This document shows positions 24,335 through 60,066 of a DNA stretch of 64,000 nt, one piece after another. The stretch is from Zootoca vivipara (Eukaryota). The translations under genes and the position numbers were made by a program. The notes beneath the pieces are model-generated. The model had not been told where the DNA came from. It saw only the letters and a list, made by a program, of their open reading frames with translations, and searched no databases. How positions within the stretch are numbered: the first letter of the stretch is position 1; each line of letters begins with the position of its first letter. The stretch is from positions 17,484,001-17,548,000 of the forward strand of contig NC_083277.1 in NCBI RefSeq assembly GCF_963506605.1, read 5' to 3'.

Positions 24335-25279
24335 ATGTACAGGGAAGCATCACGGGAAGAAGGTAACCAAAGCTACCAAGGAGAATTCATCTTACTGGGA
24401 GTGGCTGACCGCCCACACTTGGAGATGCTGCTCTTTGCCATTATCCTGATCTGCTATATGTTGACCCTGTTGGGAAACACGACCATCATTGTGGTGTCGC
24501 GGCTGGACCCCCATCTCCACACACCCATGTATTTCTTCCTCTGCAACCTCTCCTTCCTTGACCTCTGTTACACTACCAGCCTCGGACCCCGGATGCTGGT
24601 GAGCTTCTGGAGGAAAAACAAGTCCATCTCCTATGGCGGCTGTGTGGCTGAGTTGTACATCTCTCTTGCTCTGGGCTCCACAGAATGTGTCCTTTTGGCT
24701 TTCATGGCCTATGACCGATATGCCGCAGTCTGCCATCCCCTGCGCTACACTACCATTATGAACGATTCTGTATGTTTCACAATGGCTGCCATCTCCTGGG
24801 TTAGTGGGTTCAGCAATTCACTTGTGCAGACGGTGTTGACATTTAGGATTCCACGATGCGGGGAGAACCGAATAGACCATTTTTTCTGTGAGGTGCCTGC
24901 CTTTATCAAATTGGCCTGTGGGGACACCTCACTCAATGAGGCTGTGCTCTTTTTTGCCACTGTGATCATCCTTCTGTTACCAGTGGGCCTGATCACCATC
25001 TCTTATGCCTACATTGTGGCAGCTGTGTTAAGGATCCGCTCAGCTGAAGGCAGGAAGAAGGCCTTCAACACCTGTGCTTCCCACTTGATCGTGGTGTCAC
25101 TCTTTTACGGGTCAGCCATTTGCAGTTACCTCCAGCCCCGATCTGGCTACTCCCGTGACCAGGAAAAGATGGTCTCCCTTTTCTATACATTTGTCACCAC
25201 CATGTTAAATCCACTAATCTATACCCTGAGGAACAAAGAGGTACACAAAGCTCTTGGAAGGCTAATGAAGAGGAATTAA
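24335..25279 (+). CDS. Olfactory receptor, class II, family 2-like (OR-1), 314 aa
   Basis: NQS glycosylation site, [36 protein letters not shown] and [11 protein letters not shown] motifs. A splice acceptor (tacag) precedes ATG ATG at 24332/24335; the 24335 ATG aligns with the paralogues. Confidence 0.95.
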   Translation: MYREASREEGNQSYQGEFILLGVADRPHLEMLLFAIILICYMLTLLGNTTIIVVSRLDPHLHTPMYFFLCNLSFLDLCYTTSLGPRMLVSFWRKNKSISYGGCVAELYISLALGSTECVLLAFMAYDRYAAVCHPLRYTTIMNDSVCFTMAAISWVSGFSNSLVQTVLTFRIPRCGENRIDHFFCEVPAFIKLACGDTSLNEAVLFFATVIILLLPVGLITISYAYIVAAVLRIRSAEGRKKAFNTCASHLIVVSLFYGSAICSYLQPRSGYSRDQEKMVSLFYTFVTTMLNPLIYTLRNKEVHKALGRLMKRN

Positions 25280-28200
25280 TCTGAATGGCTCCCAACTTTA
25301 TTCAGAATATATATATAATCAATCATCTGTATGATTTCCCCTTCCTGTGGGAATTTGTAGCTTTTTTCAGACCTATATGTTTATTTTGTGAATGCTTTAT
25401 TGCTGTTTGATTACTGCAATCTTATGATGTTGTAATGCTGTTTTAATGAAACTGTTATAGAAAGGTGTGGTGGAGATGTTGAAAATAAATAAATCCATCT
25501 TTCTTTCTGTTCTGGCCCTTGCTTCTTGAAAGAGTACTCAAATTCAGGTTTCTGTTTCTACCAAAATATTTTATTCACAGATTACTATGATACCTAGGCA
25601 CCACAGAAGCAGACAGGATATGGTAGTGCTGGGGCTGGACATTTATCTGATATCTAGCTCAAACCCTCTTTTCTCTCTCTCCCATAACACCAGAACTTGT
25701 GGACCTCAAACGAAACTGACTGTCGAAAGATAAAATCAAGTATTTCTCCTCTAAATTTTGGTGCTTGCTCCCACAGGAGGCGGGGATGGCCCCCAACCTA
25801 TAAAGCCTTGTCCTCCATGCATTTCTCCAACCCTCTTTTAAAGCTATCATTGGTTATTAGGCACGATGACTATTTTCTACATCCTCTGTCAATACTAGTT
25901 TCTGGAAGTTGCAGGAGGATACAGTGCTCTTGTACTTGGGTCCTGCTTGCTAGTTTTCCGCAGACATCTGTAAGACAACTAGATGGGCCTCTGGCCTGAT
26001 CCAGTAGGCTCTCATGTTCTTGATTTGCTCCTAAATTTTCTCTATGTTGAATATATATTTTTAGTGATTACATTTCTGTTTATTGTCGAGAGGCTTTCAC
26101 CGCCACAGTACACCAAGGGGTGGGTTTTCTCCAATTGCAGCGGGTAGGCAATCTTCTTCCATTTTTTTTAAATAATTATTTTTATTAAGGATTTTCTTGG
26201 GTTACAAAGGTAGTGCAGTGTCTCATGCATCATTTTTACACGACAATTTTACTTGTTGAGGCATTATGAGGAAGGGGGGAAAGAGGTGGGTGGGATGGGG
26301 AGTTGGGTGCAGTGGATTGTCAATGTTTCTGTTTTTCTTGATATGTGTAGGGGTTCTCACACAAGAAACTAAAGATCATCACAGCCAACCACAAATGAGC
26401 AATCACATCCTAAGACGAATCCTGACCTCTCTCACCAACAGAGAAGCACGAACAAACAACAGAGAACCTGCACATACGACGCTGATGCCGAACCCCTACA
26501 CATATCTTCTTCCATTTTTGACACACTAGAATTTGTAAACCAATATTTTAGATTGCAGTATGGTTAAAAACATTTTCAATTAGGAAATGCTAAACCCCTT
26601 TTGGTAGAGTGTTTTTGCTGCTACTCTGGGCTTCTTACCTGCTCATAAAAAAGTTGAATAGTTCTTCCAATTTTTTGAAGTAAAGTTTCGCTCACCTTCA
26701 GTGGTATATTTGACATCAGTAAATAGGATTTGTGTATGTTCATCTTTATTACTGAATTCCTAGCCGTCCAAAAAGTTTCACATTTCCCCAATTGCTAGAT
26801 GTTTACTTCTTTCTTTAATTTATTAGTTATGATTAAATATGACTACATTTTCCAAATTAGTGGTGAATTTATACCTGGGCATCCACACACATTTGATGTC
26901 TTGGAATGTTTCCCCAATGATACTGCAGTATTACCATCTAGAGGTGTGCTTGTGTGCTATAACACAACAAAAACAGAAATTTAACTGGAAGGTTTACAGA
27001 ATAAAAAGTTGATTTTGGCAGGAAGCTACATGGCATGCACTGAAATATGACATGCACAGAAACAAAGCAGCATGTCTACCCCAAATGTTTGCAGGTATAA
27101 ACAGTATTGAAGGTGGTATCACAAATATAAACAATAAGCTTTCTGGATGGCCACTGTGAGAATAGGATGCTGGACTGGTCGTTGCCATGATCCAGAAAAC
27201 TCTTTTTATGTTCTTATATATGCAATGTTAGGCACAGTCTTTGAGCGGTGAGAGATTCCAGTGGTTTCTGCACTTACCCAGACCTCCATTTCCTTGGAGT
27301 GAAGGTCAGCAGAGACTGGTATCTTTAGCATATGGTTTTATTTACATATATACATATGCATGTGTGTGTGTGTGTGTGTGCATAAAACCATATACTAAAG
27401 ATATATATAACCTGAGCACAGGATGCAGGAGCTCACAGCACTAACATCCCACTAGATCTTGCTTTTTCATTTAGTTTCCAGAGGAACCCCAAAGTTTAAC
27501 ACACAGAGCAAAACATGTCTCTCTGTCTCTCCAGTTTACACAACTCAGGACGTTGTTCTTCTATGTACCAGCCAGGTAAGGTGGCGACAGGAAGGCAACA
27601 CATTTGTTCCTAAGGCACAGAGCAACTTCTTTGGATATGCTAAATCATAATACAGTAGTATCTCGGTTTACGAACTTAATCCGTTCCTGAAGTCTGTTCT
27701 TAAACCGAATCCGTTCTTAATCTCCAAAAAAAACAAAACAAAACAAAACAGGGTTCCTGTAAATGGGGCTAAGGGGGAGGCATTGACCATACGCAATAGG
27801 CTGTCATTGCCCTCCCCCTCCAGTGGCTGCAATCGATAAGGGGCGGGCTATCTGCTTGAACATATGTTCTCCAGAGCTAGCCCAACTCCCTCACATGCTG
27901 GATAACCCTGAAATTACCCAGATCCCCGACTGGGGGCTGGGAAGGATATACACCCAATGCCTGATCCAAGGTCTCCCTACATCTGAATTCTTAATAAAGT
28001 TGTGGCCAATTTTTATCCCATAGAATGTGGTCTTGTGTCAGCATTCCTCTCGGGGGCTGCCTGGGGCTTTGGCAGACTCCGCATGGCCGCGCAATGCTGA
28101 AAATCAGTACTCCTGATTGGTGGTCCGTGGACCCTATGGGATCCACGGCACCATTCACATAACAAAGGCTGCCATAGAGATATTTAAAAAATTCAAAAGT

Positions 28201-28299
28201 AAGGGCCCATTTGAAAAGCAGAGGGTCCACAGTCCTCAGTGCTGGATTACCAAATAGGCAGAGTAGTCACCGGCCTGTGGGCCCCATGTCCATAGTTTG

Positions 28300-58900: not shown

Positions 58901-59121
58901 ATACTGCATAGATTCAGAGGTAGTTTGGGTAGAGATTACACTTACCGGTAACAGGAGCTTGGACTTGGAGAATGGGTACTAACTAGTCTCATGTCCAAGA
59001 ATGAGAATCATTGGGTGATCACAGTCTTGCAACCATGCCAATATTGCTTTTGTTCCAACTGTTTATTCCAGCTCCATTTTGAGTAGGTGTTTTGCTATTT
59101 TTGTTTCTTCTTTTCTAGATA

Positions 59122-60066
59122 ATGTACAGGGAAGCATTGTGGGAAGAAGGTAATAAGAGCTATGAAGGAGAATTCATCTTACTGGGAGTGGCTGACCGCC
59201 CACGCTTGGAGATGTTGCTCTTTGGTCTTGTCTTGACCTGCTACACGATTACCTTGCTGGGCAACACAACCATCATTGTGGTGTCGCGGCTGGACCCCCA
59301 TCTCCACACCCCCATGTATTTCTTCCTCACCAATCTCTCCTTCCTTGATCTTTGCTTCACCACCAGTGTGGGCCCTCAAATGCTGGTGAACTTCTGGCGG
59401 AAAAGCAAGACCATCAGTTACGGTGCCTGCGTGGCCCAGCTCTACATCTTCCTTGCTTTGGGCACCACAGAATGTGTTCTTTTGGTTGTCATGGCCTACG
59501 ACCGCTATGCTGCCGTCTGCCACCCGCTGCGCTACACCACCATTATGAGCCACTCTGTATGCTACAAAATGGCTGCTGTTGCCTGGGTTTGTGGCCTTTG
59601 CAACCCAGTGATGGAGACAGTGATGACTCTTCGGCTCCCACGGTGTGGAGAGAACCGAATAGACAATTTCTTCTGTGAAGTGCCAGCCTTAATCAAACTG
59701 GCCTGCGCTGACACCTCGCTCACTGAGGCTGTGCTCTTTACTTCCAGTGTGTTGTTCCTTGTAGTACCCCTAGGCTTCATTACGGTCTCTTATAGCTTCA
59801 TTGTGGCTGCTGTGTTAAGGATCCGCTCAGCTGAAGGCAGGCAGAAGGCCTTCAACACTTGTGCTTCCCACTTGACTGTCGTGTCTCTCTTTTTTGGGAC
59901 TGCCCTTTTCACCTACCTCCAGCCCCCATCCAACAATGCCCATGACCAAGCCAAGATGGCCTCCCTTTTCTATACATTTGTCACCACTATGCTCAATCCA
60001 CTCATTTATACCCTGAGGAACAAAGAGGTGCACAAAGCTCTAAGAAGACTGATGAAGAGAACTTAA
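59122..60066 (+). CDS. Olfactory receptor, family 2-like (OR-5), 314 aa
   Basis: All OR motifs present; NKS glycosylation site; acceptor ttttctag|ataATG. Confidence 0.95.

Follow-up and report, generated by a model that had tools for sequence, protein, structure and literature searches.

Here, we report that two neighbouring olfactory receptor (OR) genes of the lizard Zootoca vivipara, OR2 and OR3, are nearly identical over most of their coding sequence (CDS) but differ sharply within a short island. The genes belong to a tandem cluster, five members of which (OR1 to OR5) lie in a 64,000-nucleotide stretch of contig NC_083277.1 (assembly GCF_963506605.1, positions 17,484,001 to 17,548,000, forward strand), referred to here as the window. 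A preliminary description of the window, made from its letters alone, had seen mosaics among these paralogues, and this observation is borne out: the island pairs OR1 with OR2, whereas the body downstream of it pairs OR2 with OR3. We consider gene conversion among tandem paralogues to be the best explanation of the mosaic, and a highly probable one. The OR2/OR3 mosaic is a real, ordinary and well resolved instance of a known process.

Step-like divergence between OR2 and OR3

In a codon alignment, OR2 (33559-34503, + strand) and OR3 (43324-44265, + strand) differ at 3 of 215 sites in columns 31-245, at 27 of 92 in the island (columns 246-337, codons 82-113; 33804-33895 in OR2 and 43566-43657 in OR3, both + strand) and at 2 of 583 in the body (columns 338-920, codons 113-307, with the differences at columns 476 and 480), followed by 3 further differences in the last codons. 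The divergent island is hence bordered on both sides by homogenised sequence, and its contrast with the body is strong (Fisher p=3e-23). Silent sites take the same steps, with a proportion of silent differences (pS) of 0.007 in the body (1/146), 0.54 in the island (12/22) and 0.04 in the 5' block. The longest identical run between OR2 and OR3, 435 nt, is also the longest among the 89 OR paralogue pairs compared. Counts for two other pairs complete the picture: OR1 and OR2 differ at 26/215 sites in the 5' block, 4/92 in the island and 103/583 in the body (island versus body p=6e-4), and OR3 and OR5 at 7/215, 6/92 and 89/583, respectively.

These counts uphold much of the preliminary description, which had correctly placed the likeness of OR2 to OR1 near 33800-33900 and had counted exactly the two OR2/OR3 differences that we find from the GSTEC codons up to the last few. 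Its scheme of an upstream and a downstream block overlooked a third one at the 5' end (codons ~11-81), over which OR2, OR3 and OR5 are near-identical. Its downstream block was said to begin at TM4 (TM, transmembrane helix), whereas the start lies in the middle of TM3 (codons 113-118), and OR4 and OR5, credited with one common downstream version, differ at 20 of 190 body residues. The positions of the two breakpoints agree with ours (TTS, columns 241-245; LGSTEC, columns 338-354), but there is some circularity in the claim that conserved stretches contain them, because a switch can be placed only inside an identical stretch.

Recombination tests support the switch. Our fragment test, a re-implementation of the GENECONV idea (3000 permutations, 321 polymorphic sites, the 21 pairs of all seven cluster genes), gave a global p of 0.0003 on all polymorphic sites for OR2/OR3 (codons 115-303), OR1/OR2 (86-122), OR2/OR5 (3-80), OR5/OR6 (44-110) and OR1/OR5 (227-251); the fragment common to OR1 and OR2 lies at 24591-24699 (+) on the OR1 side (CDS columns 257-365, 2 mismatches among polymorphic sites). 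On the 103 silent sites alone, OR2/OR3 and OR5/OR6 stay at p 0.0003. Maximum-likelihood trees place OR1 with OR2 against OR3-OR5 for the island, and OR2 with OR3 for the body, each with bootstrap 100. The incongruence of separate partition trees, proposed earlier as a check, was confirmed by approximately unbiased (AU) tests at p<1e-4 both ways, each partition rejecting the other's tree (p 9e-6 and 7e-5 with five genes, 8e-5 and 2e-54 with seven). The pairwise homoplasy index (PHI; 2000 permutations) was significant at p=0.0005 for each of the four gene sets, including the set without OR2 and OR3.

Could the pair have arisen by duplication or crossover rather than conversion? Outside the coding sequence, OR2 and OR3 are identical at 92 of 108 sites immediately upstream and 63 of 69 immediately downstream, against 581 of 583 in the tract, and collinear blocks upstream are 76-94% identical over ~2.8 kb. 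The tract is bounded on both sides, with its ends inside the CDS (before column 921) and its flanks unexchanged. Since the flanks are homologous but diverged and the tract is near-identical, gene conversion fits best. A recent tandem duplication of OR2/OR3 is ruled out, because the far more diverged flanks would have come along with the tract. The earlier proposal of conversion or unequal crossover thus stands as regards recombination between paralogues, whereas a single unequal crossover is disfavoured, because it would have exchanged one flank, and here the tract ends within the CDS and both flanks are diverged.

A more elaborate version, in which unequal crossover joined the 5' part of OR3 to the 3' part of OR2 and was followed by loss or re-conversion, has something to recommend it: P0003, a second Zootoca OR3 protein with island B and 0/190 body differences from OR2, carries the OR2 3' sequence through to the C-terminus (S159, S308), the form expected from a duplication-type crossover, and lacertids differ in copy number, with several OR1-like proteins and two OR3-like ones in P. 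raffonei. In this genome, however, OR2/OR3 similarity stops before column 921, the downstream flank is OR3's own (63/69, then divergent), and such an origin requires two crossovers within 600 bp, so we rate it as improbable. P0003 itself may stem from a tract that extends further, be a hybrid made by crossover, or reflect a mis-join.

How unusual is this pair? The genome holds at least 138 scored OR matches, from which we sampled 30 loci plus 60 picked from tandem clusters; together with the 7 focal genes, and with a minimum of 3 genes per group and 78% identity, these fell into 8 groups. Each of the 7 non-focal groups contains at least one significant conversion fragment, and one on C10 equals the focal cluster with 9 of 21 pairs significant. 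Patchwork is therefore the norm for close OR paralogues here, OR2/OR3 being merely the sharpest case. In the C10 group just mentioned, which has seven genes (C10:70.61-70.67 Mb), four fragments start at codons 84-94, near the focal 5' switch point.

Direction of transfer among lacertids

Which gene was the donor? We compared the cluster with other lacertids in protein trees of 35 lacertid rows (isoforms and duplicates dropped) and 4 outgroups. OR3 (313 aa) is marked by a one-codon N-terminal deletion, and the five proteins sharing it, from L. agilis, P. muralis, P. raffonei (two) and P. lilfordi, were taken as its orthologues. Over the 296 positions of residues 11-306, OR2-OR3 differences are most numerous in L. 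agilis (60), fewer in P. muralis (40) and P. raffonei (37 and 40), and fewest in this genome (12). The OR2-like stretch of OR3 includes none of the body in L. agilis, runs from about residue 195 in Podarcis and from residue 117 in Zootoca. For residues 117-194, Zootoca OR3 falls inside the OR2 clade (support 91) as sister to its own OR2 (99), and the OR3 orthologues of L. agilis and three Podarcis species are set apart in a clade of their own (99). Over residues 195-306, too, Zootoca OR3 is found among OR2 orthologues. Residues 117-306 show 1 difference between OR2 and OR3, against 10-13 from OR2 orthologues and 21-37 from OR3 orthologues, so that at the protein level the two paralogues are closer to each other in the tract than to their orthologues.

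The 5' part tells the reverse. For residues 11-77, OR2 joins the OR4/OR5 proteins (87), apart from its orthologues, and its 5' block (codons 11-81, 33589-33803, +; 215 nt) departs from OR3 at 3 sites and from OR5 at 6, and does not resemble that of the OR2 orthologues in the other lacertids. These orthologues carry island type A together with an OR1-like TM1 in 3 of 3 other species, and 5 of 5 OR3 orthologue proteins have B-type residues at aligned positions 90, 97, 102 and 106. The orthologue comparison thus argues that the body moved from OR2 to OR3 and the 5' block into OR2, with the island retained by each: the 3' body of OR3 was likely overwritten by OR2, and the 5' part of OR2 likely by OR3/OR5-type sequence. 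OR2 would then be the donor of its 583-nt body (33896-34478, +) and the recipient of its 5' part, with a conversion tract in OR3 at 43658-44240 (+), whose 5' end lies within 43658-43674 and whose 3' end lies before 44241; the type-B island of OR3 would be ancestral.

The preliminary description had taken the blocks to be shuffled independently. Against this, one conversion of the OR2 body into OR3 accounts for the extra combination among the five genes, and the orthologues show the TM2-TM3 block to be the ancestral part that OR2 and OR3 have each kept. The likeness of OR1 and OR2 in the island (pS 0.085 versus 0.29-0.33 elsewhere) points to older or repeated exchange between these two genes. 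N95, common to OR1 and OR2 here and K in the OR2 of three other species, hints at a lineage-specific event.

We propose the following mechanism. A recent tract of 526-583 bp would have copied OR2 sequence from mid-TM3 to TM7 onto OR3, and separate tracts would have homogenised codons ~11-81 among OR2, OR3 and OR5, at the cost of the OR1-like TM1 that OR2 had before. Between the two sets of tracts, the 92-bp island would have stayed unconverted, leaving OR2 with type A and OR3 with its ancestral type B, and older or recurrent exchange with OR1 may also have held the OR2 island close to that of OR1. Conserved OR motifs would supply the homology at which tracts start and end. Homogenisation would be the main outcome and one new hybrid receptor a by-product. 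The island may be under selection, but the data can be explained without it.

Several points weigh against conversion as we have set it out. The other species entered the comparison as proteins only, with orthology resting on the N-terminal deletion and similarity rather than on synteny or silent sites, and the direction of the 5' block, with OR3 or OR5 as donor, is weakly resolved. On the 103 silent sites, the OR1/OR2 fragment loses its global significance (global p 0.31; pairwise p 0.026). The breakpoints were picked after viewing the data, so that the AU and Fisher p-values, computed on partitions taken from those data, are optimistic; the OR2/OR3 contrast is far beyond any such optimism. 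The fragment test errs on the liberal side when rates vary by block: with data simulated free of recombination, three rate models yielded 8, 20 and 3 false-positive groups per 100, the 20 of 100 belonging to that case. One might hence suppose that there was no recombination, and that convergent or purifying selection on regions of the protein, in genes whose OR motifs are conserved, produced the pattern. The switch is identical at silent sites, and the topology changes between partitions with bootstrap 100; silent sites effectively refute this idea.

Finally, the OR2/OR3 junctions are known from the assembly consensus only and, with 435 consecutive identical bases, OR2 reads might have overwritten OR3 in assembly or polishing, or the reverse. 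We find this very improbable: the assembly comprises 1.44 Gb in 48 contigs with no N in the 184 kb around the cluster, the repeat is shorter than 600 bp, its flanks are distinct and 2 differences inside it are private, a second Zootoca protein set (24 residue differences from this genome over 5 genes) shows the same OR3 mosaic, and in Podarcis OR3 the OR2-like 3' part recurs in shorter form.

Other readings of the comparison were set aside. An ancient, squamate-wide A/B dimorphism of the island was rejected, as no aligned non-lacertid squamate or turtle protein exceeded 3/5 of the type-A diagnostic residues or reached 5/5 of the type-B set; because these proteins lack the full sets, types A and B both look lacertid-specific. 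Of 24 haplotype differences, 16 match the state of a paralogue; many are simply ancestral, and they were not used as evidence for ongoing conversion. Separately, an OR1-type body with a B-type island occurs in P0018 (L. agilis) and P0153 (P. raffonei), and was not found in the 184 kb searched here.

The cluster and its surroundings

A tblastn search over 184 kb finds seven tandem OR genes on the same strand, five inside the window and OR6 and OR7 just outside it, where the preliminary description had an array of five, together with two broken OR 3' fragments. All five genes in the window are intact, single-exon, seven-transmembrane open reading frames (ORFs) on the + strand with OR motifs and Pfam 7tm_4 matches. 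OR1 (24335-25279, +; in-frame ORF from 24323) has island type A and a body of its own, and OR4 (52758-53702, +) and its duplicate OR5 (59122-60066, +) have island type B. The OR4 unit (52237-55696) and the OR5 unit (58563-62695) are tandem duplicates with 91-93% identity over ~3.5 kb, the latter carrying an insertion of ~600 bp. OR7 (C2:17561660-17562604, window-relative 77660-78604) has a TAA at codon 17, followed by an in-frame ATG at codon 31, and shows no other damage. The OR7 island has L83, S110 and B-type residues elsewhere, and resembles outgroup squamate ORs. A short remnant behind OR2 (34618-34698, +) and a broken fragment with a frameshift and stops behind OR3 (44506-44842, +) are both closest to OR7 (86% and 82%); along with the collinear upstream blocks, they suggest an old duplicated unit ancestral to OR2 and OR3.

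The named proteins that are identical to OR6, and to OR1 wherever the two were compared, come from Zootoca vivipara, with Podarcis and Lacerta as next relatives, and the lacertid relatives are named OR 2G3-like/2B8 in their source records. The cluster resembles OR2-like class II ORs in its best solved-structure match (consOR2, PDB 8UY0, E 1e-112) and in residues E45x51 and Y6x55: E186 and Y265 are present in 7 of 7 cluster genes, and the E/D45x51-Y6x55 pair defines class II ORs in bioRxiv 2023.11.16.567230.

The array had also been called MHC-linked (MHC, major histocompatibility complex). It does share a contig with MHC_I domain matches, but the linkage is only loose: 20 of the 24 matches lie at C2:4.66-6.14 Mb, ~11 Mb from the cluster, and one weak match lies 0.76 Mb away. 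A bearing of MHC linkage on the conversion mechanism would be speculative. A single PF07491 match, a domain exon ~1 kb before the window, stands near an ORF at 1862-2404 (-), which by resemblance we take to be the probable first exon of the same gene (protein phosphatase inhibitor, PPP1R11-like). The gene is presumably PPP1R11, which in mammals is located in the MHC class I region. The window also contains young copies of a long interspersed element (LINE), presumably RTE/BovB-like, at 29073-30645 (-), with a reverse transcriptase domain split across two frames, and as fragments at ~10400, 15840 and 48830-51250 (mutually 95-98% identical); a minisatellite-like array in the OR2-OR3 gap (38666-39454, period ~90-100 bp); and a purine-rich simple repeat (13650-14070).

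Pocket position 3x32 and the meaning of the mosaic

In light of OR3 being a probable hybrid, what might have changed in the receptor? With motif-anchored numbering (C103=3x25, R128=3x50, E186=45x51, Y265=6x55), the island spans the end of TM2, extracellular loop 1 (ECL1) and the outer half of TM3, through 3x35. Documented pocket positions, as given in parts of PMC13025043 and bioRxiv 2023.11.16.567230, are 3x32, 3x33, 3x36, 3x37, 4x56, 4x60, 5x39, 5x47, 6x51, 6x55, 6x56 and 7x40. Only 1 of these 12 differs between OR2 and OR3, namely 3x32 (residue 110), which is S in OR2 and F in OR3 (and Y in OR4). The conversion swapped the ancestral T161 and E165 of OR3 for the N and H of OR2, at about 4x56 and 4x60 in the papers' numbering (our script gave positions one higher). 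With these two residues replaced, the OR3 pocket is predicted to be new, while the pair grew more alike; the net effect is a lost difference, from 37-60 of 296 residues in three other species to 12 here.

One option is that selection keeps the island, protecting a TM2-TM3 cassette with 3x32 (S, F or Y) that is swapped among bodies and tunes odour specificity, as in red/green opsin exon 5. Among lacertid proteins, residue 110 can be S or F in the same body type, and this holds for four of them: OR1 versus P0018 of L. agilis and P0153 of P. raffonei, OR2 versus OR3, P0008 versus P0128 of P. raffonei (identical but for residues 83, 84 and 110), and OR7 versus Podarcis P0012/P0139. In addition, pS between A and B islands (0.41-0.61) exceeds that of the body (0.29-0.43) outside the OR2/OR3 and OR4/OR5 pairs, Podarcis OR3 retains A207/S208 inside an otherwise OR2-like TM5, 3x32 touches the odorant in Olfr412 (PMC13025043, in part), and peaks of divergence amid ongoing conversion have been put forward in print as a mark of selection (PMC3924837). 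Yet the island is no recurrent peak, as a selection-maintained peak of the Teshima-Innan type would be: OR2 and OR3 differ over residues 11-~195 in Podarcis and everywhere in L. agilis, so that the narrow island is found in 0 of 3 other species and only 1 of 4 overall. Two tracts with a gap between them suffice for it, pS in the island is already 0.33-0.44 between OR7 and the other type-B genes, and alanine changes in TM3 of Olfr412 had only mild effects (PMC13025043). On balance, we think such selection possible but unlikely. The broader claim, that this ~90-bp TM2-ECL1-TM3 cassette is a selected, swappable module whose S and F forms have been paired by conversion with at least 4 bodies, exploring specificity combinatorially, with swaps segregating within species, seems to us doubtful. 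Adaptive combinatorial specificity is unproven and is hinted at by the four S/F body types.

Two further sources of island divergence were considered. CpG hypermutability is not indicated (2-3 CpG per 92 nt versus 13-19 per 583), and prior divergence is weak as the sole barrier to conversion, as residues 161-210 in L. agilis (14/50) are about as diverged as the island (11/39), yet were converted in Zootoca.

Gene conversion in vertebrate OR clusters was reportedly described by Sharon et al. 1999, as cited in the review PMC1995454, according to which conversion between tandem OR paralogues yields mosaic receptors and also homogenises them, as it appears to do here; what differs is that this is a lizard cluster whose direction and lineage specificity are drawn from other lacertids. 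Divergence peaks under concerted evolution have been described for exon 5 of the primate red/green opsins and for RHD/RHCE (PMC3924837), and for the Tigriopus GOT1 paralogues (PMC3728101). The likeness lies in a short divergent island between near-identical stretches of neighbouring paralogues, overlapping a ligand-facing helix. The opsin peak, however, has persisted in different species and takes in residues whose function is proven, whereas the narrow OR2/OR3 island belongs to one species and is known from sequence alone. Avian gamma-c ORs are likewise sauropsid receptors that cluster by species, with variable TM3 sites and with duplication and/or conversion suggested (PMC6969042, in part), but theirs is a clade-wide homogenisation, whereas the lacertid cluster keeps seven recognisable orthologous lineages with piecemeal exchange. 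Our literature searches, which largely excluded subscription journals and did not include supplements, found no publication on this lizard OR cluster.

The cluster thus offers a clean, polarised example of a known process. It also serves as a warning that, in clusters of this kind, trees built from entire OR genes assign orthology wrongly: OR3 looks like a young duplicate of OR2 and yet is an old, probably overwritten paralogue. OR2 and OR3 form a natural near-minimal pair, with TM4-TM7 in common and one documented pocket position different, so that what 3x32 and ECL1 contribute to the tuning of class II ORs can be tested directly. Should the island turn out to be under selection, olfaction would have its own parallel to exon 5 of the opsins.

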